Source of the DNA: a virus
Taxonomy: Duplodnaviria > Caudoviricetes
DNA: 62,424 nt
Virus record (IMG/VR): IMGVR_UViG_3300030104_000782
Coordinates: 1-62,424 of that record
Direction: 5' to 3' (one strand)
Both the position numbers and the translations under genes were made by a program. A model generated the notes under the pieces. That model saw only the letters and a list, made by a program, of their open reading frames with translations, searched no databases and was not told the DNA's origin. Shown here one piece after another: positions 13,045 through 32,231 of this stretch (positions within the stretch are counted from its first letter, which is position 1; each line of letters opens with the position of its first letter).

Positions 13045-13731
13045 ATGATCGATCTTTCTAAGATCTTTAATTATTCGCCAGATAACATAGCACCAGAGTT
13101 ATTAGAAGCAACAAAAGATTATGTTCTTGTTCCAGAAGATTCGTTTATGCCAACCGATGAGGTTCGTGAAAAAATTTTAGATTTCGTAGAGGAACCAGCA
13201 ACCGACATAATCAGTTTCCCATTTTTAACACCAAAATATTGCCGACAGCTTGTAGATACCTGCGAAGAGATAGGACAATTTAGGCATCGTCCTGGTGACG
13301 AATATCCTGCACCAGAGATTGACCTAAAAGATTTATCACCTTATGCCAATACAGCACACATACAAAAAATAGAGAAACACATAGTCCCTATAGCTGCATC
13401 ATTCTGGAATTTTCCTGTTATATGGTTGTCTTCTGCCTTCGTGGTGAAACACAGTATGGATGGACAGATTGGCAATCCAGGATGGCATCATGACGGATTA
13501 GCTGATGTAAGTTTATCGGTGCAATTAAACGATGATTTCGATGATGGTGGTGTGTATTTCGAAAGGCAAAAGTTTGCTGCTGGTCCATTACCAGTGGGTC
13601 ATGCAATATTGTTCCCTTCTCGTGTGACACATAGGCACACAGCTTTGAACATTACAAGAGGCAAACGATACTCACTCACATACTGGATGAAAGGAGATAT
13701 TCCAGAAGATTATTCTGCTAGGACTGTTTAA
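13045..13731 (+). CDS. 2OG-Fe(II) oxygenase, lysyl-hydroxylase (PLOD)-like domain
   Basis: HHD..H iron triad, GG.F, FPSRVTHRH and GKRYSL motifs. Confidence 0.85.
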   Translation: MIDLSKIFNYSPDNIAPELLEATKDYVLVPEDSFMPTDEVREKILDFVEEPATDIISFPFLTPKYCRQLVDTCEEIGQFRHRPGDEYPAPEIDLKDLSPYANTAHIQKIEKHIVPIAASFWNFPVIWLSSAFVVKHSMDGQIGNPGWHHDGLADVSLSVQLNDDFDDGGVYFERQKFAAGPLPVGHAILFPSRVTHRHTALNITRGKRYSLTYWMKGDIPEDYSARTV

Positions 13732-14440: not shown

Positions 14441-14884
14441 TTATTTTCCCGTACTACCGAAACCACCCATGCTTCGTTTTGTTATACCACTAAATTCTAA
14501 CACAGGAGTCCACATTACATTAATTATAGGTAAGATAACTAATTGTGCTATGCGATCACCTTTTCCTACATAATACTCTTTTTCGGAATTGTTAACAAGA
14601 TTCACAATTAATGAACCTTGATAATCAGCATCGATTATGCCGAGTGTGTTTTTAAGCGATATTCCTCTACTAGCTAATCCTGAGCGTGGGCAAATTAAAC
14701 CACATATTTCTGTATCACCTAAATATATGGCTAGACCTATGTCAAATTTATGCGACTCGTTGGGGAGTAGTTCTTTATCTTCTAACGAAACTAAGTCTAA
14801 CCCTGCTGAGCCGACAGTGGCATATTCTGGTGGGGATGGGTATGTTCCGTTTGTATGTGTTACTTTTAATTCTATTTTCTTCAT
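14441..14884 (-). CDS. dut: Trimeric dUTPase
   Basis: Motifs SAGLDL, PRSG, GIIDADYQG, GDRIAQL and R..GGFGSTG. Confidence 0.95.
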   Translation of the reverse strand: MKKIELKVTHTNGTYPSPPEYATVGSAGLDLVSLEDKELLPNESHKFDIGLAIYLGDTEICGLICPRSGLASRGISLKNTLGIIDADYQGSLIVNLVNNSEKEYYVGKGDRIAQLVILPIINVMWTPVLEFSGITKRSMGGFGSTGK

Positions 14885-16133: not shown

Positions 16134-18014
16134 TTATTTGCTCCAGTATTTATTGTGGTCGACCACAGCAGTACCCCAAGTTTCCCCTATCTCAGCATCT
16201 ACTTTTGATGGCACTACTAGATCAACACAGTTTTCCATGATTTCTACAATCTTTCTACTTTCTTGTTTATTTAAAACTGATACGTCAAGTTCATCATGTA
16301 CCTGTATGTGAGGAACTATACCCTCTTCCCACATATCCAACATAGCTTGTTTTGTCATATCAGCAGCACTTCCCTGTATCAAGCGATTAAATGCACGATA
16401 AGTAAATGCCCGACGTAAGTTAGCACCATACTCTTCGTACGCTTGTTCAAAAGGGAGGGGTGTATTTTTCTCGTTTCTTGGTTCATACATGTCGAAACGA
16501 CATTTTCTACCCAAAAGTGTTTTTATGTAACCCACGTTTTCTGCCTTACGAGAGCAGGATAACGTAAGTTCTTTAATAAATGGTACTTTTGAATGATAGT
16601 TATTGAACAATGCATCAGCTTCAAGATCATTTATGCCGAGTGCTTGTATTAATTTAGTTTTACCCATGCCATAACTTAATGACAGGTTAATTACTTTTGC
16701 ATCTTTTCTTGCTATGCCTGCCATATCAGCCACTATCTGATGAAAGTCAGCATCGTCTTCTTTATAAGCAGACACTGCTTCTTCTGATCCAGGAAGATTC
16801 ATCCTAGATGCATAATGCACAGTTAATCTTGGTTCTTGTTGCGAATAATCAAAGGCACCCCAACTATGTCCTTCTTCTGGTAAAAACAAACCACGAACTA
16901 ATGGACCAAGAACAGGATCTCTAGCTGGTACTTGTTGCAAGTTTGGTGTGCTATAACTAAACCTGCCACTAACAGTGCCCCCAGAGTCACCACGCAGAGG
17001 ATGCATTTGCCCATGTATTCTACCTTTATGAGCATGTTCTAATACCATGTTTTCTATAAACGCACTGCGTATCTTTTGATATTTTCTAGCTTCAACAATC
17101 AATTTAGGTAGTCCGTGGTTAAGACTTTCTAGCCACTTACCAGTAAAACTAGGTGCATTAGTTTTTTGTGTTCTAGGATATGTTAACCCAGCTTTATCAA
17201 ACGCTCTAGCCACACTCGCTGATGCCCAAACGTCTACATCAACACCATACTTATACTTTATTTGTTTGATACATTCTCGCTCTTGTTTTCTTAATGTTTG
17301 TACACTCTCTTCTGCTTTACTTATGTCAACACGTACACCTTTCCATCTCATTTCTACAAGCAGAGGTATTAAGCTAGACTCTAGTTCATAAATAGATTGC
17401 AAGTTTTCATCTATAAGTTTTTTCTGTAATACATCCCACAACTTTAACGTAAGCACTGCGTCCTGTTCAGCGTACTCACCCACATATTTTGCAGGTAAGG
17501 CATACATCTCGGACTTTGGGTCTATACCCCATGCACTAGCAGCATCTTTTAGTAATGTTTCGTCTTTAGTTTCATCACAATAATCTGCACCTAAAGAGTC
17601 TAATGAGTATCTTCTGCGATGCTCATCTACCAGTGGAGCAGCAATCACAGTATCATGTATTTTACCCTGTATTCTAACACCCTCTCGTTTTAACCAACCA
17701 ACATCATACAATGCATTGTGAAATATTTTATCAGCACCACCACTTAGTGTTTTATTTAGCCAGCGTAACACAAGACCTACGTCTAGATTGCCACCACCTT
17801 CATGCCTTATGGGTAAATAACCACTCCAGTTATCTGTAGCTATGGCTATGCCAGTTACATGCCCATTACCAGTCGCCCATCCTGGACCAGATAACTTTAA
17901 ATCTGGGTCTTTAGTTTCTAAGTCAACAGCTATACGTTCGGCTGAAGATAGATCAGGCAGTGTCTCAGGAGGAGTCCAGTCAGATCTAGGTGTAAATATA
18001 GGTTGTTGTATCAT
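16134..18014 (-). CDS. polA: DNA polymerase family A with 3'-5' exonuclease
   Basis: Exo DLET, HNALYD, YAEQD; polymerase DYSQQEPR, R..AK.INL...YG, QVHDEL. Confidence 0.95.
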   Translation of the reverse strand: MIQQPIFTPRSDWTPPETLPDLSSAERIAVDLETKDPDLKLSGPGWATGNGHVTGIAIATDNWSGYLPIRHEGGGNLDVGLVLRWLNKTLSGGADKIFHNALYDVGWLKREGVRIQGKIHDTVIAAPLVDEHRRRYSLDSLGADYCDETKDETLLKDAASAWGIDPKSEMYALPAKYVGEYAEQDAVLTLKLWDVLQKKLIDENLQSIYELESSLIPLLVEMRWKGVRVDISKAEESVQTLRKQERECIKQIKYKYGVDVDVWASASVARAFDKAGLTYPRTQKTNAPSFTGKWLESLNHGLPKLIVEARKYQKIRSAFIENMVLEHAHKGRIHGQMHPLRGDSGGTVSGRFSYSTPNLQQVPARDPVLGPLVRGLFLPEEGHSWGAFDYSQQEPRLTVHYASRMNLPGSEEAVSAYKEDDADFHQIVADMAGIARKDAKVINLSLSYGMGKTKLIQALGINDLEADALFNNYHSKVPFIKELTLSCSRKAENVGYIKTLLGRKCRFDMYEPRNEKNTPLPFEQAYEEYGANLRRAFTYRAFNRLIQGSAADMTKQAMLDMWEEGIVPHIQVHDELDVSVLNKQESRKIVEIMENCVDLVVPSKVDAEIGETWGTAVVDHNKYWSK

Positions 18015-18547
18015 TCCGTTGCTCCGTAAGACTGCACTAAATGTGCAAGCAATGCTTTTCCTTTTGCGTTAAGTTTCATATCGACTAATTTTTCAACACC
18101 ATTACTAAAAACTACGTTCACGTTTGTGTTGCCTAAACTACGCTGATTAACACAGTACCAAAGTAACTCAAATAAATCAGATTGTTTAAAAAGTTCTTGT
18201 TCTTGTGGTGTTAAATCATAGTCAACACCTAAATCTTTCTCTATTTTCTTTTCTACTAACGCTAACTCTAACGCTAAGTCTTTGTTGTTCCACTTCGTGG
18301 GTGCAGGCATATCACCAGTTTGCTTCTCAGCTACATCGTGTGTAAGTGCCTTTAGTATTGCATGTTTGCTTATGTGTGGGTCTAGCCAATTTAGTATAAC
18401 AGCAACACCCCATGAGTGACTGCCTACAGTTTGTTCCCCTATGGTAGCCAGAGTGTGGTAACGCTTAACTTCCCCTCCGTCTAAGACGTTTAGTAGCTCA
18501 TCTACATTAGTACGTGCGATAGTCATTGCATACTCCTGATTTACCAT
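18011..18547 (-). CDS. HD-domain deoxynucleotide phosphohydrolase (YfbR-like)
   Basis: KRY..TVGSHS..HDVAE..TGDMPAP..K.SD motifs; true start may be 18526. Confidence 0.85.
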   Translation of the reverse strand: MVNQEYAMTIARTNVDELLNVLDGGEVKRYHTLATIGEQTVGSHSWGVAVILNWLDPHISKHAILKALTHDVAEKQTGDMPAPTKWNNKDLALELALVEKKIEKDLGVDYDLTPQEQELFKQSDLFELLWYCVNQRSLGNTNVNVVFSNGVEKLVDMKLNAKGKALLAHLVQSYGATE

Positions 18548-19193
18548 AGTGGCACCACCTACAATTATCTACACTAGCTTTAGCAGGATATTCTGTTGCC
18601 TCAGTCAGTTTTAGTGCTCGATTATGGAATAGTTCTTGTCTCTCTTTTATGTCGTCAACAGTGTAGGAGTGTCGAGATATTTTACCATGGTCTAAATACC
18701 ATAACTCTGCCTGTATGTTTTCTACACTAGGGTCACGATTATACGTTGCAGCTGCATATAGAGCACACTGTTGTTCGTGAGAAGATTCGTTACCCATGTA
18801 TCTGCCTGTCTTAAAATCTATAACTACAGTGCGATCTGGTCTTTTTACATAAGCATCAATCTTATATCTGCACCAAGTTTTATCTTCGTTCCATGCTGCA
18901 GGTTGCCATTCTAAATCGAATGCCCAATCTTCTTCTACGAAAACAGTTCCTGCATCGTAACCTTCTCTAAGTTGTTCAAAACCTTCCTCAAACATATGCA
19001 AACCACGCGTCATGGGACCTTCACCCTTTATATACAGTTCGGCTTCATTATGTATGTTTGTTCCTCTGGTTGCAGCAGGATGCTGTGGTGTAGGGATCTT
19101 TTCTATATTAGCATAATAGTATCGTTTAGGGCATTGCTCAAAAACAGATAATCTACTGTATGACCAACGATTAACTATGGCATGGTCCGACAT
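18507..19193 (-). CDS. Cas4/RecB-like PD-(D/E)XK exonuclease
   Basis: SYS..CPKRY, GT.IH, KID..IDFKTG, Q..LY and C-terminal CRWC..C. Confidence 0.85.
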   Translation of the reverse strand: MSDHAIVNRWSYSRLSVFEQCPKRYYYANIEKIPTPQHPAATRGTNIHNEAELYIKGEGPMTRGLHMFEEGFEQLREGYDAGTVFVEEDWAFDLEWQPAAWNEDKTWCRYKIDAYVKRPDRTVVIDFKTGRYMGNESSHEQQCALYAAATYNRDPSVENIQAELWYLDHGKISRHSYTVDDIKERQELFHNRALKLTEATEYPAKASVDNCRWCHYGKSGVCNDYRTY

Positions 19194-20238
19194 CTTTCTC
19201 CTCCTGTTTACCTATGACTGCTTCTATGTCCTTAGTTTCTTCTGTACCTTTCAACCTTCTCTGTAACCACTCTACGCATGCTTTTTGCCAATCCTCAGCT
19301 TTGCAATATGTTTTTAAAACACCTATTGCTCCTTGTGTATTTTTATCTTTGTGCATACGCCAAGCAGTTTGCATCGGGATAACAACATCAGAGAAAAAAT
19401 GGTTTGCGAAATCTTGCTCAGCATCAGCAAAAAATGCATCTAAATCATTATCAAACTCTTCAGGGTCGTTAACCATGGGGAACACCGATAGTTCTTTGTA
19501 TGGGTTACCAACTAAAGGGTACTTAAAACTGTAGTAATCAAACTCAGGCAACTTATCTTTCATTTTATTAAACAGTTCCGTATATACATGGAAACTGTCG
19601 CTTACTTGATTATACACACCAACAGTTACACCTATTCTTGCTGCCATATATTCTTGTAACATAGAAAAATGTACAGCGTTTGCACCATACGCTCCCCATA
19701 TCATGTCATTAGACCTGCAACACACAGTCATGTTAAGTTTACCACTGCGCACTTTAAAATATATGTGAGTGTTGCAAGGAGTGTCTAGTGTAGTTCTATC
19801 TAAATCGTTATTACATTCCCACATAGCTACTACGCAACGACGATCGTCAGGATTTTCCTTTAACCTACGAACAACCACATCTAGCTGGTCTTTTTCGTAA
19901 AACTTTCGCCACCTATAGCCATATGCACCATTAAATGTTTCACCATTATCGGTGAACGCTCGCATACCTTTGTTATAATACGCAACAAAGTCTACGTCCT
20001 CTCTACCTTGTAACATCCACAAACCTTCCATAAAATGGAAAAATGGATTAGCATCCCTACCTTCCCAAAAAAGCACACGTTCACATGGGTTTTCGTATGT
20101 TGTTATAACTGGACCTTCAAACTCTAAAGTTTGTCCTGCCCTGCTATCTTGTTCTACAACATCATTATCCCACGTAAATGCGTCCATACCTAATATAAAT
20201 GCTTCATGAACATTTCTACTGTTTATAGTTTTAGCCAT
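19171..20238 (-). CDS. Thymidylate synthase-fold enzyme, probable dUMP hydroxymethylase
   Basis: Catalytic PC (DTPCN); RSNDMIWGAYGANAVHF with Asn specificity residue, as in 5-hmdU phage enzymes; SFHVY. Confidence 0.85.
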   Translation of the reverse strand: MAKTINSRNVHEAFILGMDAFTWDNDVVEQDSRAGQTLEFEGPVITTYENPCERVLFWEGRDANPFFHFMEGLWMLQGREDVDFVAYYNKGMRAFTDNGETFNGAYGYRWRKFYEKDQLDVVVRRLKENPDDRRCVVAMWECNNDLDRTTLDTPCNTHIYFKVRSGKLNMTVCCRSNDMIWGAYGANAVHFSMLQEYMAARIGVTVGVYNQVSDSFHVYTELFNKMKDKLPEFDYYSFKYPLVGNPYKELSVFPMVNDPEEFDNDLDAFFADAEQDFANHFFSDVVIPMQTAWRMHKDKNTQGAIGVLKTYCKAEDWQKACVEWLQRRLKGTEETKDIEAVIGKQEEKDVGPCHS

Positions 20239-20254
20239 TTGTTATAATCTCCAG

Positions 20255-21589
20255 TTATACCACAGCAGACAGTTTGAAAAAGTCTGTCATGATTTCGTTA
20301 GTTTTATTCGCTACATTGTCAGAAACAACACCCACTTCTAGTTTACCATAAAAGCCTGTTGGTTCATTGTTAGCCAATGACAGATACTGAAGAGCTACTC
20401 GTTCTCTTTCGAAATGCTGTAAAAGTTTTCTATTGTTTTCTTGTATGTCTTCTGCCCAGTCTTGGTTTAAGTTTACAGTTTCTGTAATAACAGAAGCGAA
20501 CTCCTGAGGAGTAGCATCATGAGGCACCATCATATAGTTTTCTGAAGGTTTGAACACTTCGCCCTCACCTTCGGCATTGGTAGAGATTCCATAGTTCCTC
20601 GCAATAGGTATTGCCCCCTCTATTATCCCATCGACGATCACTCGATTAAAATGGTCACCTATTTTTGCGTATGCAACTGACCAGGATGGGTCAATTACGC
20701 ATTTAACCTGTCTTAAATGTTCCCTAACTTGTGCTTCAGTTAAGTAGCCAAACCATTCCATGCCATACTGTAGTGCTACATCCCATATCTTTTTACCATG
20801 ATGCTCGTAACTTATATCTGGGTCAAGTTCTGGTGAAACAAAATACTTTTCCTTACATTTATCTTTAGAGGTCATGTAGTTGTGCTCAATACCACCACCA
20901 GCCATACGTTTCTCAAAAGTTTCTGGTAAATGTGGGATAGCTCTAACTAAATCGTCAACATGTTTCCAACCTTTGAACGTTTGCATAGAGATAAATCCGT
21001 TCTTACGTTGATTCCAATTAGGTTTGTTTAAGTCGCTTATGTCTTGTGGGTTAAGTATCAACGCTCTAGGTACATTTAGTACAGCAGCACCATGGTAAGC
21101 ACAAGGATGCACACAAGCTAAACCATTTAGATGATGGGATATCTGGCTTATCCAGGGATAACTTTTTTGCATATTACCATCGTGGATAACAGCTACCTGT
21201 TTAATTCTATCAGGTAAATCATACAATGCCAACCAATCCGTATTACCTTCATTGTCTCTTTGCTTTGTAGGAACAGGGATTTGCCACACAATTAAATCGT
21301 ACTCAGCCACATACTCTTTCCAACGTTTAAGATTACTGTTGCCTTTGTAAGCAAACCTACTGCTTTTAGGAAACAACCAACCTTTTCCTTGATGTACAGG
21401 TATGCCAGAACCACGCTGTTCATAGCCAGTTTTATCTTTTGTAGTTTTTTCTTTAATAGATTCTCGCCATACAAGTTCTATAAAGTCAACGTGGTGACCT
21501 TGTAGCTTAAAGCCAGAAATTAAGTTTTCATTGTGGTTTATTATGCCACCAGGACTGTTAATCCCATACATTGTTACCAATATTTTCAT
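20255..21589 (-). CDS. GT-B fold glycosyltransferase (putative DNA/base glycosyltransferase)
   Basis: MKILV..SPGGI N-terminus, IHD, K.WKHVD.L.RA, DPS..D.FNRV.VDG...GA.PI. Confidence 0.75.
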   Translation of the reverse strand: MKILVTMYGINSPGGIINHNENLISGFKLQGHHVDFIELVWRESIKEKTTKDKTGYEQRGSGIPVHQGKGWLFPKSSRFAYKGNSNLKRWKEYVAEYDLIVWQIPVPTKQRDNEGNTDWLALYDLPDRIKQVAVIHDGNMQKSYPWISQISHHLNGLACVHPCAYHGAAVLNVPRALILNPQDISDLNKPNWNQRKNGFISMQTFKGWKHVDDLVRAIPHLPETFEKRMAGGGIEHNYMTSKDKCKEKYFVSPELDPDISYEHHGKKIWDVALQYGMEWFGYLTEAQVREHLRQVKCVIDPSWSVAYAKIGDHFNRVIVDGIIEGAIPIARNYGISTNAEGEGEVFKPSENYMMVPHDATPQEFASVITETVNLNQDWAEDIQENNRKLLQHFERERVALQYLSLANNEPTGFYGKLEVGVVSDNVANKTNEIMTDFFKLSAVV

Positions 21590-21894
21590 GTATTTTCCTC
21601 CTTTCTTTTAGTTACATGTTCTTCAACTAAAAGCAGATATCTTCTTAAATCTTGTATGTCATCTAAGATTCCCTCTGCTCGTGTATCGTTTTCGTATGCT
21701 TCAAATATGTCGTAAGCAACTTTCTTAACTTGATTTTCGATGCGATCCCACTTACGAGCCAACATCATAAACGCACCTACACCGCCACGTTGTCGCCATG
21801 ATGTGCCATAAGACTTCTCTGCTGTTTCTAGTTTATCAACATCAGTTTGTGCGATCACTCGCATGTTTTCAAATTTACTAAATTGGTTGTTCAT
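21586..21894 (-). CDS. Nucleotide-modification-associated all-alpha protein (Nmad1/DUF1599, MazG-like)
   Basis: K...YG.SW..RG..KWDR..D.I.DL..Y pattern; ATGA overlap start at 21894. Confidence 0.7.
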   Translation of the reverse strand: MNNQFSKFENMRVIAQTDVDKLETAEKSYGTSWRQRGGVGAFMMLARKWDRIENQVKKVAYDIFEAYENDTRAEGILDDIQDLRRYLLLVEEHVTKRKEENT

Positions 21895-22535
21895 CTTGTA
21901 TATGCTCCTATAGTATGCCAATTATTACCTGTGTCTCTATACTCTCGCATAGGTTTAAATCCTTGATCTAGCATGCTTTGGTTTAGTTCTTTACCTTTAG
22001 CACGCCATGTAGAATCATATTGAAAATGTATTTCCATTACAAGTTTTTCAACATAATCAGGAAACACATAAGGCATGAACCCATACTCTGCTCCCTCTAC
22101 ATCTATTTTTATCTTGTTAGGTTTAGTTTGTTGTATGATATCATCAAACTTTAGTGCTAACACTTTTACTGCATCTCTACCTCTAACCTCACGAGTCATG
22201 TGTAAACCTTTGTTTTTCTTAGAGTTTACATACAGATAAACATAATCACTATCATCACCAACAACAGCACAACGTGTGTTTACAGAGTTAGGACTGTTTA
22301 CATTTAACAGTTCGAAGTTATCCTCATCTGGTTCGTAAGAATACACTTTTTTAGCACCCTCTTGTGTTGCGTATAAACTAAATGCACCAATGTTTGCCCC
22401 TATGTCTAAAACTGTGTCGCTTTCTTGTATGTCTAGCATATTGTACGAAGGACGTATTTCTTTAAACACATACTCGTCTAGTGTGCCAGGACGCACCCAT
22501 CCCCCAAATTTTTCTAAATATTCTATCCCTTCCAT
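21891..22535 (-). CDS. FkbM-family SAM-dependent methyltransferase
   Basis: VLDIGANIGAFS, YEP...NF.LL and KIDVEGAEY motifs. Confidence 0.9.
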   Translation of the reverse strand: MEGIEYLEKFGGWVRPGTLDEYVFKEIRPSYNMLDIQESDTVLDIGANIGAFSLYATQEGAKKVYSYEPDEDNFELLNVNSPNSVNTRCAVVGDDSDYVYLYVNSKKNKGLHMTREVRGRDAVKVLALKFDDIIQQTKPNKIKIDVEGAEYGFMPYVFPDYVEKLVMEIHFQYDSTWRAKGKELNQSMLDQGFKPMREYRDTGNNWHTIGAYTR

Positions 22536-23383
22536 TTATATATACTCCTCGGTTTGCCTTCGCCATTTCTTACACGTTCATACTTATCGAACTCGCAAAG
22601 GGTGTGTTCGATATCTCGCATTTCTAAATTAGGTACTTGCCCATGTAACCACTCATGACTTAACTCAAGCAATACTTGCATTTCCCCTATATTTATGTCA
22701 CTTTTTATTTGTTTATTTAATGGTCTATTGTGTATTCTGTTGAGACCACGCTTTGCTCCAGGTCCAGGATTACCCCATGTCATAATATCTGTAGCTTCGT
22801 CCCCTAAAAATGTATGTCGCCAATCGGTAACTACCTCATAAGCCATAAATGGACCCATGTAAGGGTAAGGCATGAGCACATCCCACAATGCTTTCAACGA
22901 ACCTTTAGCTTCGTGTATAGAATCTATAAACTTGTTGTTATCCTTAACTATTTGGTCAATACACCAACATACACCGTTTAGTTTGTCCATACCATTCGGT
23001 GTCTTTATGATGTATGCTCCTGTAACCCATTGTGGCTGTTCTTTCAATACTTCTACACAGTGTTCGCTATCCCAGTTTCTGTATAAATCTTCTTTTAGTA
23101 GTATTTTTCCTGTTTCTATCAAATTAAACCACCTAAATATAATCGTGGCTAATGCGACATCAATGTCATTACGCATACCCTCTCTTACATTCTCTCTGAA
23201 CCAAACAGTTGTTCTATCGTTTTCACGAAACACATTAGTAAACTTATATTTTTGTAGGATAGGGTCAGAAGTCCATGGATATTCCTCACCTCTAGATTTC
23301 CGTAAATGTATTAAATGTCTTTCGTTTAAAAAATTAAAAAACTTATGTAAATTCTCTGCTCTATACCATCCCATACTAATCAC
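22523..23383 (-). CDS. aGPT-PPlase1 / 5-hmdU DNA kinase helical-domain protein
   Basis: F..ER..I...PWT.DPIL..YKFTNVFRE.DR, FRWFN, G.FMAYEV..D, GPGA.RGL, DIEH.LCEFDKY. Confidence 0.85.
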   Translation of the reverse strand: MISMGWYRAENLHKFFNFLNERHLIHLRKSRGEEYPWTSDPILQKYKFTNVFRENDRTTVWFRENVREGMRNDIDVALATIIFRWFNLIETGKILLKEDLYRNWDSEHCVEVLKEQPQWVTGAYIIKTPNGMDKLNGVCWCIDQIVKDNNKFIDSIHEAKGSLKALWDVLMPYPYMGPFMAYEVVTDWRHTFLGDEATDIMTWGNPGPGAKRGLNRIHNRPLNKQIKSDINIGEMQVLLELSHEWLHGQVPNLEMRDIEHTLCEFDKYERVRNGEGKPRSIYKWKG

Positions 23384-24185
23384 CTCCCATTACTCTTTTA
23401 TCTAGTTTCTTACGTGCGACAATATCTAACAGTTCAGCAACATCTTTACCACTTTTTGTTTTAGGTGGTTCTATTTTAACAAAACCAAGAACATTGTCTA
23501 TTTTTGCCTCTGCTTCTGCGTCTGTAATCACTACAGGTTTGTCAGCTTCACCACGTCTTACTTTATGAAAGTCATCTAACTGTTTTTCAAAACTATGATA
23601 ACGAACACTACTTAGTTGTGGTAAACCATTTCTCCTTCTACGATGATTTCTAAGGGCTTTAGCATACCAATAACCTTTACCACTATACTTAGCTTTTGCT
23701 CTTTTTTCATACATAGCGTCCATAAGTGCATACTCACTACGCAATATCATATGTAGATCGTCTAAATCTTCTTGTATATATGCCGAATGACCACCATTAG
23801 CCTCGTCTGCACAATCAGCGTAAAGCTCAGCTTGAGCAAGTATGTCAGGAGCAACGTAATGTTCATGTACACTAGGCACGTGTTCGACAAAGCCCTCTTT
23901 ACTATAAGTTTTGTATGGATTTTTATTACCTTCATAAGTGTGTAGTTTTCTACATTCCTCAGAACAACAAGTACCTACACGATATTCTTCATTTATTGGA
24001 CCACCACAAAATGAACAACCATACACGACAGGTTTGTAAGGCTCAGGTCGTTTTATATGTTTAATTAGTTTTGGTTTTGGTTTTGGTTTTGGCTTAGACT
24101 TATAAACAGTTCGTAAAGGGTTTTGTTTTACGATATCTAATACAGGTAAAAACTGTATATATCTAACTAAATCCTCCCACTTCAT
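23376..24185 (-). CDS. Hypothetical protein with CxxC...CxxxC zinc-finger-like motif
   Basis: CSFCGGPI..CCSEEC; (PK)4 tract; apparently leaderless. Confidence 0.6.
   Translation of the reverse strand: MKWEDLVRYIQFLPVLDIVKQNPLRTVYKSKPKPKPKPKLIKHIKRPEPYKPVVYGCSFCGGPINEEYRVGTCCSEECRKLHTYEGNKNPYKTYSKEGFVEHVPSVHEHYVAPDILAQAELYADCADEANGGHSAYIQEDLDDLHMILRSEYALMDAMYEKRAKAKYSGKGYWYAKALRNHRRRRNGLPQLSSVRYHSFEKQLDDFHKVRRGEADKPVVITDAEAEAKIDNVLGFVKIEPPKTKSGKDVAELLDIVARKKLDKRVMGGD
24069..24092. repeat. (TTTTGG)4 in-frame microsatellite
   Basis: Encodes PKPKPKPK. Confidence 0.85.
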
Positions 24186-24228: not shown

Positions 24229-25737
24229 TTATAAAATAGGTCTAAAAAATTTAGAAGTACTGGGTTGAACTATGTGTAAATTTTTACGAGTACGTGTTAC
24301 AGCTACATAAAATGCTCTGTTCTCTCCGTCAGGATTTGAGTAAAGTTCGTTCCAAGTTTTAACGGATATATCTGTAAACACCACTACATTATCTGCCTCA
24401 CCACCTTTTGCAGCATGTATAGTAGACAATCGAATTCTAGGGTTAGATATTTTTTCACCTCTGCGTAAACAAGCTATTATGTATTCTCTTTGTGTTGCAC
24501 CTATCCTGTCGAGTGCTTCGTGCCAAACAGCATCTGTTAGTAAACCATGTTTTTCCTTTAACTCAGATAAGTCTAGTAAATCATCTTCGCCAAGTCCTGG
24601 CAGTTTTTTATGGCCTCGAGCGACACCTACACCTACAGACATAAAATAATATATATCACGAACTTTAGAGGCTGAGACTTTCCTTTCTTTTCGTAACAGT
24701 TCCCAGTTACCTATCGCATCTAACAGTTCTTGTTTTACAGACAGAACGTTGTTTCTAGCGTAAATGAATCCAATTTGTTGCAAAAATTTTTCTACCCTAT
24801 TTAGTATGTATCCGTTGCGAGCAAGTACCAGCCATTCGCCATCACTAAAGTCTAAATGTTCATGGGAAGTGTGAATTATAATTTCACCCTCAACAGAGCG
24901 AGGAGTCCAGGACTTAACTCTCCTGTTGACAGTTGGTATTCTGTTTAATATACCTTGTGCCACCTCGTGTACTTTTTTAGGAATACGATATGAGTTTTCT
25001 AAAACTGTTACCTCGCCGTCTAACTCTACAAAAGTTTCTACATCTGCACCTGCCCACTGGTATATTGCTTGATCGTCATCACCAGCAACATGTACATGCT
25101 TAACTCCTTGTGCTAATTTCTTTATACAATCCCACTGCAGTTTAGATAAATCTTGTGCTTCGTCAACTATAAGAACTTCTAGCGAGGGTTTAGTTTTTTC
25201 TTTTAAAAATAAATACAACATATCTGTGTAATCTTTTAAAAATCTTTCTTCTTTATATCTCTCTAAACCTGTACAAAACCAGTTGACATGGTTCCAAGGA
25301 ATATCTAAGTTAGCTTTTTCCCATTGCTCCCTAACAGTAACCTTTTTATTTCTAGCTATGTTTTCCATAAAAAGCATTTGATCACCTTTTGATAACCCAA
25401 ACACAGCACCTTCTTCTTTTTTAAGTTGACCATTTAATGGCTCACCCATTATTTTACTGAACTCTTTATAATGTGAACGAGCCATTATATCGGCTGTGCT
25501 TAGACCGAGCCAATGGTAACAAAGTGAGTGTATAGTTCTGAAATAAACTAAATCTTCTTGAGTCAAATCGAAACGATCACTTGCACGTTCTAGTGCTTCG
25601 TTTGCAGCTTTTTTAGTAAACGCTAAATAACCTATTTTATGTGGTGATACACCATCCTTTAGGTAATCCTCTGTTAGGTTTAAAAGTTTTGTAGTTTTAC
25701 CAGTGCCAGGTGGACCGAGGATTATATTCCATGTCAT
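24229..25737 (-). CDS. SF1 UvrD/Rep-like helicase
   Basis: GPPGTGKT, VDEAQD, GDDDQAIY, TIHAAKGGE and YVAVTR motifs. Confidence 0.95.
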   Translation of the reverse strand: MTWNIILGPPGTGKTTKLLNLTEDYLKDGVSPHKIGYLAFTKKAANEALERASDRFDLTQEDLVYFRTIHSLCYHWLGLSTADIMARSHYKEFSKIMGEPLNGQLKKEEGAVFGLSKGDQMLFMENIARNKKVTVREQWEKANLDIPWNHVNWFCTGLERYKEERFLKDYTDMLYLFLKEKTKPSLEVLIVDEAQDLSKLQWDCIKKLAQGVKHVHVAGDDDQAIYQWAGADVETFVELDGEVTVLENSYRIPKKVHEVAQGILNRIPTVNRRVKSWTPRSVEGEIIIHTSHEHLDFSDGEWLVLARNGYILNRVEKFLQQIGFIYARNNVLSVKQELLDAIGNWELLRKERKVSASKVRDIYYFMSVGVGVARGHKKLPGLGEDDLLDLSELKEKHGLLTDAVWHEALDRIGATQREYIIACLRRGEKISNPRIRLSTIHAAKGGEADNVVVFTDISVKTWNELYSNPDGENRAFYVAVTRTRKNLHIVQPSTSKFFRPIL

Positions 25738-28349: not shown

Positions 28350-29126
28350 TTAAAAAGGTGCTTCGTCTTGTTGACTAGCTTTTACTGAGCCAGTATTTAC
28401 GTTTTGACTAAACTGCTTTGCTGCAGAGTATATGAAACCATCATCAGCACCTAGTTGTTCATCTAATGAGATATCCCAACCGAACCATGATCCTTGGTCG
28501 TTTTGCTCTACTACAGAAGTGAGTTTATATTTATGTGAAAAAGTTGGTGGTGTGAACACATTACCATCTTTCGTCCTTATTTTCAAACCTGACATTATAG
28601 AGTTCCATTTTTTAGATTTTTTTAGCTGACTACCACCGAAAGCGAGTATTGCTTGATTAAAGCCACCTTGTTCATCTAAAACTAACACATAATGGTTTGC
28701 AGTCGTTGAAAGCAAGTTGCCATTAGGTAAGTAATCCTGCCCTTTTTCACTTCTGCTTACTTCTTTGAGTATCTCAGAAGACTCATGCACGGCAGCAAGA
28801 CCTTTTCTCTCAGGCATCCATTCTAAATAGTTTCTTTTATATGCTACTGGTACAACTAACACACCTTTGTCACCTTTGTATAGTGTGTTATCGACAGTAT
28901 TAAATATGTCACCCTGTTCACAATCCTTTATATATTTACCATCACGCGAGTTCACTTGTGGACTTTGTGCTTGTGTTATACGAAGGAAAGGAATCGCTAA
29001 ATCTTCTGATGTTACGTTTTCTAAGCCAGAGTTGGCATCAGCTAACATGTCTGCTTCGGATATAGCTAGTTCATTCTTTTGTTGTTTTGCTATTGGTTCT
29101 TTTTTATTTTCTACTTTATCATTCAT
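28350..29126 (-). CDS. Putative ssDNA-binding/annealing protein
   Basis: DLAIPFLRI.Q..SP, SQLKKSKKWN, acidic-aromatic tail DEAPF; upstream of primase. Confidence 0.65.
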   Translation of the reverse strand: MNDKVENKKEPIAKQQKNELAISEADMLADANSGLENVTSEDLAIPFLRITQAQSPQVNSRDGKYIKDCEQGDIFNTVDNTLYKGDKGVLVVPVAYKRNYLEWMPERKGLAAVHESSEILKEVSRSEKGQDYLPNGNLLSTTANHYVLVLDEQGGFNQAILAFGGSQLKKSKKWNSIMSGLKIRTKDGNVFTPPTFSHKYKLTSVVEQNDQGSWFGWDISLDEQLGADDGFIYSAAKQFSQNVNTGSVKASQQDEAPF

Positions 29127-29129
29127 TTT

Positions 29130-29696
29130 TTAACCTTTTGTTATTTTAGTTTTTTGACCTACATAAACATTAAAAGTTTCGAATGGGAGGTCAGTACCAC
29201 TCTCAACTTGCTCTCGTGCAAACGCTTTGAGAGTCATAGGCTCTACCCAGCGTTTGTTTGAAGGTGAGTAACCTTGCGAAGTTAAACTTTGCAACATAGT
29301 CTCAGCAGATTCGTCTTCCCCTCGACCAAACTGTAAGGACACAACATTTTTTATAATGTCTTCGTGTCCGTTAGCTTTCAGCCAAGCGAATGCTTCCTCT
29401 TCCTTCTCTTTCCCGATACGAGCAGAATAAAACTGCTGTACAGAAACCTTTACACCATCTGCTAATTTTATCTCCGATAAATTACATTCACGCATAGCAT
29501 CTGGTAACCTTTGTTCCGATATATCTTTCAACTCTTTCTTGAGGTCGGCTAGTTTTTCTTCTGCTACCGATACCTCTTCAGTTAATCGTATTTGTTCTTG
29601 TGCCCAAAACGATACTTCTTTTAATGAGTCGTTTTTTAATTGGCTATTTATTTCTGGGTTAGAATCTTCTTCCCACATTTTTTCTATATCACTCAT
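29130..29696 (-). CDS. Conserved replication-module protein
   Basis: Coiled-coil plus AFAWLK.NGH.DIIK and MTLKAF.RE motifs. Confidence 0.6.
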   Translation of the reverse strand: MSDIEKMWEEDSNPEINSQLKNDSLKEVSFWAQEQIRLTEEVSVAEEKLADLKKELKDISEQRLPDAMRECNLSEIKLADGVKVSVQQFYSARIGKEKEEEAFAWLKANGHEDIIKNVVSLQFGRGEDESAETMLQSLTSQGYSPSNKRWVEPMTLKAFAREQVESGTDLPFETFNVYVGQKTKITKG

Positions 29697-29705
29697 ATTT
29701 TTCCT

Positions 29706-30011
29706 TTATTTGAAATCTACACTAACAGGGAAGTATTTATACTCCCTATTGTCCCATTTTAAAAACTTAACAACTCCAGAAGTTTTGGCAGCATAGTGTG
29801 TTGCGATCCCAATAGATATCGGATCGCCGACTAAAAGTAAATAATCTTCTTCCCCAAAAGTTTCTAGACCTGAACGTATTTTGTTTACAGCAGATTCTGT
29901 AGAAAACATAAGATTGGTGTTAGGTGGTAGAAGGAACTCTAACTCACCATACTTTGTAGCTGCAAGGAGATTTTTTCCTGTTGCTTCTTGTATCGCATAT
30001 ACTTTTGCCAT
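29706..30011 (-). CDS. Conserved hypothetical protein
   Basis: DYLLLVGDP..LKWD motif; first gene after leftward promoter. Confidence 0.6.
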   Translation of the reverse strand: MAKVYAIQEATGKNLLAATKYGELEFLLPPNTNLMFSTESAVNKIRSGLETFGEEDYLLLVGDPISIGIATHYAAKTSGVVKFLKWDNREYKYFPVSVDFK

Positions 30012-30301: not shown

Positions 30302-30787
30302 ATGAATATATTTTACGTCAACGAAGATCCCACCGACGCTGCCATCTGTCTACCAGATAAACTCGTAGTAAAAATGCCTTTAGAATCTGCTCAAATGTTA
30401 TGCACTGCACATCGTGTGCTCGACGGCGACGAGCGTGCTGATAGTTTAGGTTTGTATAAGACTGCTATGAAAAATCACCCATGTACTATATGGGCACGTG
30501 AAACTAGTGATAACTACATGTGGCTTTACGAACATTTTTACGCATTATGTAGCGAATACACTACACGTTATGGTAGAGAGCATTTGAGTTTTACTAAATT
30601 AAACGATAAACTATGCAAGCTACCTTTAAATATATCTATAGCACATAAAACTACCATGCCTCAAGCGATGCCAGACGAGTATAAATGCCAAGATCCTATA
30701 AAAGCATATCGTGATTATATGGTAAACGAAAAACATTACGCTAAATGGAATAAAATACCAGAGCGACAACCTATGTGGTGGTCTTAG
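30302..30787 (+). CDS. Pyrimidine-dimer DNA glycosylase (DenV/endonuclease V-like)
   Basis: MNIF..DK.VVKM.LESAQML.TA..NHPC.IW..EY..RYG..H. Confidence 0.8.
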   Translation: MNIFYVNEDPTDAAICLPDKLVVKMPLESAQMLCTAHRVLDGDERADSLGLYKTAMKNHPCTIWARETSDNYMWLYEHFYALCSEYTTRYGREHLSFTKLNDKLCKLPLNISIAHKTTMPQAMPDEYKCQDPIKAYRDYMVNEKHYAKWNKIPERQPMWWS

Positions 30788-30788
30788 T

Positions 30789-32231
30789 ATGAAACAAGCA
30801 TTTGTATTTAAAACTGAACCTTATGAACACCAGTTAACTGCGTTAGAAAAAAGTTGTGACACAGAAAATTACGCATATTTTATGGAAATGGGTACAGGTA
30901 AGTCTAAGGTGTTAATAGACAACATAACACATCTATACACCAAAGGAAAAATAAACGCAGTTTTAGTCGTAGCACCTAAAGGAGTCTATCGTAACTGGGC
31001 AAAACGAGAGATACCTATACACTTACCAGACTTTATAGAAAAGAACATATATCTATGGACTCCTGGAGAGTCAGCTAAGATGCTAAAAGAAAAAGAGGAG
31101 TTTATAAAACCCTCATCAGTGATAAAGTTTTTAGTAATGAACGTAGAAGCATTGAGCACACCGAAAGGTGTTAAGTATGCGTGGAAATTTATAGCTAACC
31201 ATGACACCCTTATGGCAGTTGACGAGAGCACAACTATAAAAAACCCAACAGCAAAACGTACAAAAAACATAGTTAAACTAGGTAAGTATTGTTATTATCG
31301 TAGAATACTAACTGGTTCACCTATAACTAGATCACCACTAGACATATACACACAATGTCAGTTTTTAGACCCAGCATTATTAGGGTTTAGTTCTTATTAT
31401 TCGTTTAGAAATCGTTATGCATTGCTCGTAGACAGGAGTGCAGGTGGTCGTACTTTTAAACAAGTTGTTGGTTTTCAAAACTTAGACGAACTAAATGGTT
31501 TGATGCAACCTTTTAGTTATCGTGTATTAAAAGAAGATTGTTTAGATTTACCAGATAAAGTGTACACAAAACGTGAGATAGAGATGTCACCTGAGCAGAA
31601 AAAAGTGTATAAGGAAATACAGAAGTATGCTATATCAGAACTGTCCGTAGGCACTGTGTCTGCTTCTTCGGTGATTACACAAATTATACGTTTACATCAG
31701 ATTGCCTGTGGTTTTGTTTCTACTGACGACAATGTAATTACAGATATTAAAAATAATCGTACGGAAGAATTATTACAGATATTAGAGGAAACAGAAGGTA
31801 AGGTGATTATATGGGCAAATTACCGACACGATATAAACAGGATATATAAGCTGATTGTAAAAGAGTATGGTGAGGAAAGTGTAGGAACATATTACGGAGA
31901 TACCTCCGATGCTGATCGAGAAGATTTAATTACAAAGTTTCAAGACAAAGATAGTCCTCTACGTTTTTTCGTAGGTAACACACAGACTGGTGGTTATGGT
32001 ATTACGTTGACTGCTGCGAGTACTGTTGTTTATTTTTCTAACAGTTATGATTTAGAAAAGCGTTTACAATCAGAAGATCGTGCTCATCGTATCGGTCAAA
32101 CTAATAAAGTTACATATATTGACATCGTTTGTAAAGATACAGTCGATGAAAAGATAGTAAAAGCACTGAGGAACAAACTTAACCTAGCACAAACAGTTAT
32201 GGGCGAAGACAACTGGAAAGAGTGGTTATAG
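30789..32231 (+). CDS. SNF2-family SF2 helicase
   Basis: MGTGKS, DES, LTGSP, G.GITLT and QSEDRAHRIGQ motifs. Confidence 0.95.
   Translation: MKQAFVFKTEPYEHQLTALEKSCDTENYAYFMEMGTGKSKVLIDNITHLYTKGKINAVLVVAPKGVYRNWAKREIPIHLPDFIEKNIYLWTPGESAKMLKEKEEFIKPSSVIKFLVMNVEALSTPKGVKYAWKFIANHDTLMAVDESTTIKNPTAKRTKNIVKLGKYCYYRRILTGSPITRSPLDIYTQCQFLDPALLGFSSYYSFRNRYALLVDRSAGGRTFKQVVGFQNLDELNGLMQPFSYRVLKEDCLDLPDKVYTKREIEMSPEQKKVYKEIQKYAISELSVGTVSASSVITQIIRLHQIACGFVSTDDNVITDIKNNRTEELLQILEETEGKVIIWANYRHDINRIYKLIVKEYGEESVGTYYGDTSDADREDLITKFQDKDSPLRFFVGNTQTGGYGITLTAASTVVYFSNSYDLEKRLQSEDRAHRIGQTNKVTYIDIVCKDTVDEKIVKALRNKLNLAQTVMGEDNWKEWL

Follow-up and report, generated by a model that had tools for sequence, protein, structure and literature searches.

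Gene content of a putative thymine hypermodification operon

The window analyzed here is a stretch of 62,424 bases that comprises an entire IMG/VR virus record (IMGVR_UViG_3300030104_000782; Duplodnaviria, Caudoviricetes) with a CheckV completeness of 100%. Its replication half contains a minus-strand operon that we examined as a candidate pathway for the hypermodification of thymine by way of 5-hydroxymethyluracil (hmU). The G+C content of the window is ~38% and its GC skew is steadily negative, which fits the location of almost all genes on the minus strand. Read along that strand from position 25737 to 16134, the operon encodes a UvrD-type helicase, a 269-amino acid (aa) protein, a PF18723 protein, an FkbM methyltransferase, a small protein, a glycosyltransferase (GT), a homolog of thymidylate synthase (TS), a nuclease, an HD-domain protein, and a family A DNA polymerase (PolA; Table 1). 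All of these genes lie on the minus strand, and neighbors overlap by 4 to 41 bases or sit 16 bases apart, so that the tight coupling noted in an initial annotation of this DNA is borne out by the open reading frame (ORF) coordinates. The gene run listed there (PF18723, FkbM, GT-B, TS-fold enzyme, nuclease, HD, PolA) was recovered as well, with the exception of Nmad1, for which there was no profile match. Since the identical gene order was found again in related viral contigs, the arrangement is not a product of chance. What we report directly from this and related loci are gene families, folds, neighborhoods, and absences.

Table 1. Position, strand, and family assignment of the operon genes and of the dUTPase gene in the window.
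Feature	Position	Strand	Basis and remarks
UvrD-type helicase	24229..25737	-	PF00580 E 1.4e-31; conserved upstream neighbor of the module, before the PF18723 gene in 68/72 related loci
269-aa protein, no known family	23376..24185	-	Cys-rich zinc-ribbon-like stretch; no Pfam or PHROG match
PF18723 protein (aGPT-Pplase clade 1 / HMUDK_hel), 286 aa	22523..23383	-	E 1.9e-47
FkbM methyltransferase, SAM-dependent, 214 aa	21891..22535	-	PF05050, 51.1 bits vs cut-off 22.7, profile positions 1-172 of 173
Small protein	ORF 21586..21921 (111 aa), probably 21586..21894 (102 aa from Met10)	-	No Pfam family
GT-B glycosyltransferase, 444 aa	20255..21589	-	Glycos_transf_1 22.6 bits (cut-off 26.4) and fold model
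TS-fold enzyme, 355 aa	19171..20238	-	Thymidylat_synt (PF00303) 89.1 bits; phrog_5131 E 3e-114
PD-(D/E)XK, Cas4-like nuclease	18507..19193	-	PF12705 E 2.7e-20
HD-domain YfbR-like 5'-deoxynucleotidase	18011..18547	-	PF12917 E 8.9e-13
Family A DNA polymerase (PolA) with 3'-5' exonuclease, PhiJL001-type	16134..18014	-	PF00476 E 1.7e-55, PF01612 E 3.5e-14
Trimeric-type dUTPase	14441..14884	-	PF00692 E 1.2e-25; proposed dUMP supplier

Searches of the whole record at E<=1 gave no match to the HMUDK kinase family (PF18748) or to AAA_33 (PF13671), none to the amino acid:DNA transferase family ADDT (PF18724), and none to radical S-adenosylmethionine (SAM) enzymes (PF04055), Tet_JBP dioxygenases (PF12851), or TAGT glycosyltransferases (PF20691). 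The positive controls responded as they should: PaMx11 gp49 matched the kinase families, PaMx11 gp46 matched PF18724 with 97 bits, and PhiJL001 gp22 matched PF20691 with 181 bits. A Pfam scan of 30 ORFs from the replication half revealed no pyridoxal phosphate (PLP) enzyme, and no sugar-activation gene was noticed in this set. The initial annotation had likewise seen no kinase, amino acid:DNA transferase, PLP enzyme, or radical SAM enzyme. It had also left room for a phospho-linked sugar, an option that found no support and that we rejected because no PF18748 or PF13671 kinase is present anywhere in the record. The 269-aa protein was considered as a hidden kinase and rejected too: it has no Walker A motif (P-loop), belongs to no family, and is variable in close relatives, where it is 35-69% identical or absent.

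A predicted dUMP hydroxymethylase

The TS homolog is the only TS-family gene of the record, which has one PF00303 match and no ThyX. Its translation contains both motifs pointed out in the initial annotation, namely the catalytic cysteine (TPCNTH) and the uracil-type asparagine (RSND..WGAYGAN), and in an alignment with its best solved relative, the CMP hydroxymethylase MilA (E 4e-23), the final asparagine lies opposite an aspartate of MilA. It is 45% identical to PaMx11 gp51 over 332 residues and 42% identical to PhiJL001 gp24 over nearly its full length. When 50,697 phage records were searched with tblastn, M6/PaMx11-type enzymes came first, followed by those of the SPO1 type (2e-40) and the ViI type (~1e-26), with the td enzymes of T4 and RB69 at ~1e-6; the SPO1-type and ViI-type enzymes were thus ahead of T4 td by 20-35 orders of E-value. 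The DNA of phage SPO1 contains hmU. For phages of the M6/PaMx11 and ViI types, the accessible parts of Lee et al. (2018, 2021) describe DNA with hmU or hmU-derived bases. Because the TS homolog ranks with the enzymes of hmU phages above td, we read it as a predicted dUMP hydroxymethylase, and this context lends support to the pre-replicative hmU pathway that had been suggested for the locus. Two genes downstream, the YfbR-like HD-domain protein is a candidate dTMP- or dNMP-depleting enzyme, and its family also adjoins TS in PaMx11 (gp52) and PhiJL001 (gp25).

A glycosyltransferase family with two alternative partners

A structural model of the GT that was built from 20 homologs had a predicted local distance difference test score (pLDDT) of 94.9 and a clear GT-B fold, on the basis of which the enzyme is predicted to be a retaining GT-B of the GT4/GT72-like kind. 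Given a fold of this retaining type, the sugar would more probably be joined in alpha linkage than in the beta linkage known from base J.

The scored candidates include 437 relatives of the GT at E<=0.001, and the family has 270 encoding stretches in IMG/VR. A pattern scan of genomes from 185,579 species (one genome each) returned a single locus, an 11.9-kb contig of a metagenome-assembled genome (MAG) with the same phage genes. All locus sets used in this study were the best 80 of each scan with close relatives included, so that the counts do not represent independent events. For the GT we counted 83 loci, leaving out L004, L005, and L007-L013 (same contigs as L019-L027) as well as L015, L017, and L018 (taken as near-duplicates of L014 and L016). 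A TS homolog was present in 19 of the 83 and a Tet_JBP dioxygenase in 59, with no locus containing both; of the 5 loci with neither enzyme, 2 are cut off at the GT. The TET-linked loci belong to T4-like marine phages (UvsX, UvsW, clamp, clamp loader), and in these the GT is immediately preceded by a Tet_JBP dioxygenase of 449 aa (for the representative, PF12851 with E 3.6e-26), at a median gap of 4 nucleotides. No C5-cytosine methylase was found in the 20 scanned of the 24 commonest neighbor clusters of these loci. In a quick maximum-likelihood tree, for which rows of <380 aa and identical sequences were dropped (61 of the 83 loci and the window were kept), the TET-linked GTs formed one clade (support 100) with the TS-linked GTs on the other side of the branch. 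A tblastn search of the 50,697 phage records with the GT gave no match. In PhiJL001, the GT slot of the operon is filled by an unrelated glycosyltransferase of the TAGT family.

The sole constant companion of the GT is an enzyme that makes a hydroxymethyl-pyrimidine, and it does so by two unrelated routes; the simplest acceptor is therefore that hydroxymethyl group. There is thus strong context evidence for a GT that would glycosylate hmU in DNA. The initial annotation had foreseen a DNA-directed sugar that needs neither kinase nor amino acid transferase, and the position of the GT beside TS or TET/JBP in 78 of the 83 loci speaks for it.

Of 66 loci, 11 (L047, L055, L056, L060, L061, L063, L064, L067, L068, L070, and L075) have a cytidylyltransferase-like gene of 143 aa immediately before the TET-linked GT (for L064:566-997, PF01467 with E 1.7e-12), which hints at a CMP- or CDP-activated sugar donor in the TET-linked phages.

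FkbM as an optional tailoring enzyme

The FkbM methyltransferase is present in 9 of the 19 TS-linked GT loci, always together with PF18723 and the GT and in two divergent forms, and in none of the 59 TET-linked GT loci or the 72 GT-less relatives described below. It is missing from L006, L014, and other loci in which the GT is retained, and its absence from such GT-bearing loci marks it as an optional tailoring step. The initial annotation had treated the methyltransferase, the GT, the PF18723 protein, and the TS as parts of one pathway; in our survey the association of the GT with TS or TET/JBP stood, and FkbM and PF18723 turned out not to be constant partners of the GT.

The three closest relatives of the FkbM protein (53, 42, and 38% identical) adjoin the GT family of the window or TAGT. 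Its nearest homologs in cultured phages (31-34% identical) are located in ParB / Tet_JBP / FkbM cassettes without a GT, as in Pelagibacter phage HTVC112P (gp17-19) and Prochlorococcus phage MED4-117. Across 80 viral FkbM loci we recorded TET/JBP in 16, ParB in 17, PF18723 in 14, TS in 9, TAGT in 6, and the GT family of the window in 1, and 13 of the 16 TET/JBP-bearing loci contained ParB and TET and no other searched marker. The methyl acceptor may be the sugar, as the initial annotation had it, or the hydroxyl group of an hmU that is left unglycosylated; we give the sugar a slight edge, with the two about equally likely. In the literature searched, there was no report of methoxymethyluracil in phage DNA.

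Several FkbM loci show other arrangements. In L206 the order is PF18723 - FkbM - TS, with no recognized GT in between. A ~240-aa protein without a Pfam family adjoins FkbM at L199:5677-6399, L205:894-1613, and L190:5609-6325, and two of these three TS-type loci have no recognized GT; the ~240-aa proteins could be unrecognized transferases. A longer PF18723 homolog (~349 aa) lies directly beside FkbM at L246:3265-4461 and also in L215 and L257, and L246 also contains, two genes upstream of its FkbM gene, a gene for myo-inositol-1-phosphate synthase (PF01658 E 7.5e-23).

The PF18723 protein and the 102-aa protein

The match of the PF18723 protein to its profile covers positions 4-278 of 281 (162.4 bits vs cut-off 25), and as judged from homologs its start is probably the ATG at 23374. 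The closest cultured relative is gp19 of the Alphaproteobacteria phage PhiJL001 (49% identity; Mesyanzhinovviridae, Keylargovirus), and the next cultured matches are from Pseudomonas phages of the PaMx11, Ab18, and M6 type. The family is very large, with 3569 of the scored candidates related at E<=0.001, and 24 sequences of 50-85% identity share 60 invariant columns. Its Pfam name (HMUDK_hel) denotes a helical domain of a DNA kinase; here and in PaMx11 gp50 and PhiJL001 gp19, the protein stands alone with no kinase attached. The names aGPT-Pplase and Nmad reportedly go back to work by Iyer et al. from 2013.

Comparison of the PF18723 protein with the PDB gave no sequence match at E<=1 and no Foldseek match at E<=0.001, and a helix-hairpin-helix (HhH) DNA-glycosylase-like fold was seen solely in a full VIA-align scan. 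A possible lead comes from PaMx11 gp46, the solved glycine:DNA transferase, in which the nucleophile Cys247 attacks C6 of the base according to the accessible part of Wen et al. (2024). This cysteine lies in ILCKWK. Cys263 of the PF18723 protein lies in an L-C-[EQ]-aromatic motif that is kept in 17 of 17 diverse homologs, some only distantly related, and the distance of the motif cysteine from the C-terminus is similar to that of Cys247. An hhalign comparison of the PF18723 alignment with gp46 was not significant (probability 0.2%). From the motif we infer, with good reason, that Cys263 may be the equivalent of Cys247, and the PF18723 protein is probably an enzyme that acts on flipped-out hmU. 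If the two cysteines are indeed equivalent, PF18723 is itself catalytic rather than an adjunct of a kinase.

The small protein, counted from its probable start, has 3311 homologs at E<=0.001 (2018 representatives at 50% identity), and 37 columns are invariant in 21 sequences. It has no Pfam match at E<=10, and there was no meaningful one in 21 family members or 40 long members. A search of the PDB with its profile returned only a chance-level row (E 0.6), and BLASTP showed no similarity to PhiJL001 gp20. The initial annotation had placed Nmad1 at this position. DUF1599 (PF07659), which we take to be the Pfam name for Nmad1, had no match in the record at E<=10, and none was found in five large phage records of the TET type. 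A link to DUF1599 came from a protein language model alone, in which 25% of the members of the second-ranked cluster carry DUF1599, a set shared by 24 of 30 named matches. Our guess, from paired acidic motifs on predicted helices, is that the small protein might be an all-alpha nucleotide pyrophosphatase that removes dTTP. In some homologs (P0362, P0363, P0364, and P0365), a single chain of 225-345 aa contains the domain twice, which would be in keeping with function as a dimer.

A core trio with lineage-specific additions

The 72 next-closest PF18723 loci (L108-L179; 48-56% identical; L100-L107 were left out as contigs already counted) have the order UvrD - PF18723 - TS - small protein - PolA. 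All 72 contain TS, and in 69 the small protein adjoins it, the three misses being loci that end just after TS. The GT family of the window, FkbM, HD, and TAGT are missing from all 72, as are relatives of the PaMx11 kinase and ADDT. The HD nucleotidase occurs in 15 of the 19 TS-linked GT loci; the PD-(D/E)XK nuclease occurs in 10 of the 83 GT loci, all from the lineage of the window, and no copy of it was seen among the 72 GT-less relatives. Because the trio of PF18723, TS, and small protein stands alone in all 72 relatives, we conclude that the GT, FkbM, the nuclease, and HD are lineage-specific insertions into an old trio. PF18723, the small protein, FkbM, and HD are each absent from all 59 TET-linked GT loci, and it follows from the lack of PF18723 there that the GT does not need PF18723. 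The trio probably acts by itself in many ocean phages. The bare trio module is the commoner form compared with the GT-bearing operon.

Comparison with known systems

Thymidine hypermodification is known in phages M6/YuA, PaMx11, ViI, PhiW-14, SP10, and SH-Ab 15599, as described in the available portions of Lee et al. (2018, 2021), Wen et al. (2024), and a 2026 paper on dapT in NAR. With these pathways the window shares a predicted dUMP hydroxymethylase, an adjoining PF18723 gene (44% identity to PaMx11 gp50), an HD nucleotidase, and PolA in the same order, and by analogy the further modification would take place post-replicatively on hmU in DNA. Unlike them, the window has no P-loop 5-hmdU DNA kinase, PF18724 protein, or radical SAM enzyme, no PLP enzyme among the scanned ORFs, and likewise no flavin lyase or acetyltransferase; the GT and FkbM take the place of these genes.

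Phage PhiJL001 (gp19, gp22, gp24, and gp25) belongs to the same type of phage as the window and has the same order of PF18723, GT, TS, HD, and PolA and no kinase in the stretch examined, and its annotation already names a glucosyl transferase beside a hydroxymethylase-like TS. However, the PhiJL001 enzyme is a TAGT (PF20691, GT-A type) accompanied by Nmad5, whereas the window has an unrelated GT-B together with FkbM. For pelagiphages of the HTVC023P type, TS and aG/PT-PPlase1 are described as 'partner genes' that occur with a 5'-deoxynucleotidase and a putative glucosyltransferase (accessible part of PMC9599517).

Phage pathways that combine TET/JBP dioxygenases (5mYOX) with glycosyltransferases were reported by Burke (2021), by Pyle et al. 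(2023 preprint; Cell Rep 2024), and in a PNAS 2026 paper on a T-dioxygenase (PMC13229309). According to the parts of Pyle et al. available to us, 5mYOX-associated phage GT-A and GT-B enzymes glycosylate 5-hydroxymethylcytosine (5hmC) in DNA, and the mined GT-B contigs carry ThyS in 28% and 5mYOX in 10%. O-methyltransferases are among the co-occurring genes named in these papers. The GT family of the window is similar to these enzymes in that it adjoins Tet_JBP in 59 of the 83 loci and in that its PDB matches resemble the best ones of the published enzymes (MshA, PglH, and the T4 beta-glucosyltransferase BGT). The window differs in having no TET/JBP; its hydroxymethyl base would be made before replication by the TS homolog and would be expected at all T rather than at motifs.

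The remaining systems are more distant. The T-even system with the T4 alpha-glucosyltransferase modifies cytosine, whereas the asparagine of the TS homolog points to uracil; the two GTs share 12% identity, and the polymerases belong to families B and A, respectively. Base J, which is made by JBP1/2 and the glucosyltransferase JGT in kinetoplastids, resembles the predicted product in that a sugar is attached to the hydroxymethyl group of an hmU within DNA. In the window, however, hmU would come from dUMP and not from T oxidation, the GT is a predicted retaining GT-B and not a GT-A-type JGT, the linkage would be alpha and not beta, a methyl group would be added, and replacement would probably be genome-wide. 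The ParB / TET-JBP / FkbM cassettes (HTVC112P, MED4-117, MED4-184, and P-HS2) have in common with the window an FkbM protein (28-34% identical), an hmU-forming enzyme, and a location in a DNA-metabolism region, yet they have no GT and no TS, and their hmU would be formed through a ParB-dependent dioxygenase.

The gene set as such is thus already in print, with PhiJL001, pelagiphages, and the ThyS + GT-B contigs as examples in the accessible parts of these sources. As far as the literature searched is accessible, the predicted base is uncharacterized, as the initial annotation had thought, and there is no report of a measured glycosyl-hmU from a TS-type phage, the chemistry of SP-15, YerA41, and Carin-5 being different. 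New here are the GT-B family with its split between TS and TET, the series from trio to trio + GT and trio + GT + FkbM, the cysteine motif in PF18723 proteins, and the question of which group accepts the methyl.

Proposed pathway and its alternatives

We hold with moderate confidence that the operon encodes a kinase-free thymine hypermodification in which hmU replaces T and a sugar and probably a methyl group are then added. Every chemical step of the following scheme, the sugar, its linkage, and the extent of replacement are inferred from the genes and their contexts. The first layer would be the old core that is common to many marine phages, with TS, the PF18723 protein, and the 102-aa protein. 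In this layer, the dUTPase and host enzymes would supply dUMP, which the TS homolog would turn into 5-hmdUMP, while the HD nucleotidase and perhaps the small protein would deplete thymidine nucleotides. Kinases not named among these genes would raise 5-hmdUMP to the triphosphate, and PolA would place hmU in the phage DNA instead of thymine and then copy the modified template. In the second layer, which would have been added in this lineage, the GT would flip hmU out, as the T4 alpha-glucosyltransferase does with 5-hydroxymethylcytosine (hmC), and move a sugar from a host nucleotide-sugar to the 5-hydroxymethyl oxygen, probably in alpha linkage and with no prior phosphorylation, after which FkbM would add an O-methyl group. 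PF18723 would be a base-flipping cysteine enzyme from the superfamily of amino acid:DNA transferases and would perform a cysteine-dependent step. The more specific proposal that the DNA of this lineage contains a previously undescribed alpha-glycosyl-oxymethyl-uracil, with either an O-methylated sugar or 5-methoxymethyluracil, along with a kinase-independent reaction of PF18723 and the 102-aa protein on hmU, is a speculative one. If this latter reaction is real, the minimal trio is a complete modification pathway of ocean phages.

To our knowledge, every characterized thymine pathway passes through a DNA kinase. The pathway proposed here would be a second, direct route in which hmU is glycosylated and perhaps methylated. 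Modified thymines decide which restriction, CRISPR, and glycosylase defenses a phage evades, and they are also a source of enzymes for DNA labeling and sequencing. The most widespread and least understood parts of the system are the PF18723 and 102-aa proteins, whose relatives in marine metagenomes number in the thousands for each, and the natural series of trio, trio + GT, and trio + GT + FkbM should be useful for the assignment of functions.

Several findings weigh against the proposed pathway. The 20 near-identical matches listed from sequencing runs were all assembled contigs from marine or aquatic metagenomes, with no RNA dataset among them, and the phage is known from assembled marine metagenome contigs alone. 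No dNMP kinase for hmdUMP and no dCMP deaminase were found among the 30 scanned ORFs. The Glycos_transf_1 match of the GT stays under the curated cut-off, and its fold match is tied between the T4 alpha-glucosyltransferase and cell-wall and small-molecule GT4 enzymes; such tied matches by themselves do not point to a DNA acceptor. The TET-linked GTs are a separate clade, 41-46% identical, and their acceptor may be hmU or hmC. The scan of species genomes relied on two peptide patterns, which lowers the sensitivity behind a confinement of the GT to phages. Some GT homologs are on long contigs, or they carry the label 'glycosyltransferase involved in cell wall biosynthesis' or stem from an archaeal MAG. 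A source of hmU with neither GT family was present in 21 of the 80 FkbM loci, which argues against a sugar as the target of FkbM, and 44 of the 80 had none of the searched markers. These marker-free loci, the cell wall labels, and a fold that is equally near to wall teichoic acid, mycothiol, bacillithiol, and phosphatidylinositol mannoside (PIM) glycosyltransferases would be in line with a GT and FkbM that modify a small molecule, a virion protein, or glycans of the host surface and that are in the replication module by accident. We consider this quite improbable, because the 78 GT loci with a hydroxymethyl-pyrimidine-forming enzyme have gaps of a few bases and come from two unrelated phage types, the GT gene is translationally coupled in an early DNA-metabolism operon, and an unrelated GT of DNA type (TAGT) occupies the same slot in PhiJL001. 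Still further from what we expect is canonical DNA with no hmU at all, made with a TS homolog that is an ordinary dTMP synthase or a dCMP enzyme. Sequence alone cannot separate hydroxymethylase from methylase chemistry and the best solved relative is a CMP enzyme, but the specificity position holds the dUMP-type asparagine where MilA has aspartate, the closest phage relatives are all of hmU type with true td genes as far weaker matches, and TS is always accompanied by PF18723, a family that is tied to hmU pathways. This makes canonical DNA very improbable.

Other readings accept hmU and assign the later steps differently. The FkbM and GT families are each found alone with a source of hmU, from which one may propose that both enzymes cap the hmU hydroxyl in parallel, so that the DNA would contain a mixture of glycosyl-oxymethyl-uracil and 5-methoxymethyluracil with the sugar left unmethylated. 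The cultured-phage cassettes with FkbM and no GT, the 13 ParB + TET loci with no other marker, the arrangement in L206, and the GT beside TET/JBP without FkbM in 59 of 59 loci are all in agreement with such a mixture. We nevertheless find it somewhat doubtful, since every FkbM locus of the window lineage also has the GT (9 of 9) and the 72 GT-less relatives have no FkbM, the three closest relatives of FkbM are linked to the GT or TAGT with the ParB-TET ones only 27-34% identical, the ~240-aa neighbors of FkbM in L199 and L205 could be transferases that escaped recognition, and the expected methoxymethyluracil is missing from the phage literature searched. Alternatively, PF18723, perhaps with the 102-aa protein, could be the primary modifier that swaps the hmU hydroxyl for another group without a kinase, with the GT and FkbM decorating its product. 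The motif cysteine kept in 17 of 17 homologs and its likeness to the ILCKWK context of gp46, the 60 invariant columns, which suggest an enzyme, and the 72 of 72 related loci with the trio and no kinase or transferase would suit this role. It is unlikely in our view, however: the profile comparison with gp46 was not significant and the cysteine equivalence comes from the motif, hydroxide is a poor leaving group, the 59 TET/JBP loci have the GT and no PF18723 product for it to depend on, and, in the accessible part of the source, M6 gp55 (from gene order presumably the M6 homolog of PF18723) was not needed for glycinyl-thymidine formation in lysates. Altogether, a sugar added directly to hmU, with FkbM as a later and optional step, is the reading that we prefer for the operon of the window.

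Other features of the record

At the DNA level, the gene cluster had no match among the 50,697 phage records. The PD-(D/E)XK nuclease has a further match, to the Cas4 family (PF01930 E 6.7e-6), and a Cys-rich stretch at its C-terminus. The sole oxygenase-like ORF, of 228 aa at 13045-13731 (+), has a weak match, below the cut-off, to 2-oxoglutarate (2OG)-Fe(II) oxygenases (PF13640 E 3.7e-5) and is not a Tet_JBP protein. The sole sizeable plus-strand block, at 30302-32231, encodes a T4 endonuclease V-like pyrimidine-dimer DNA glycosylase (PF03013 E 4.4e-9) followed by a SNF2-type helicase. On the minus strand at 28350-30011, three genes match the families of cyanophage Pam3 gp34, gp33, and gp32 (PF23977, PF23984, and PF23992), and the Pam3 gp34-like gene is kept upstream of an archaeo-eukaryotic primase (AEP) gene in 63 of the 72 related loci.

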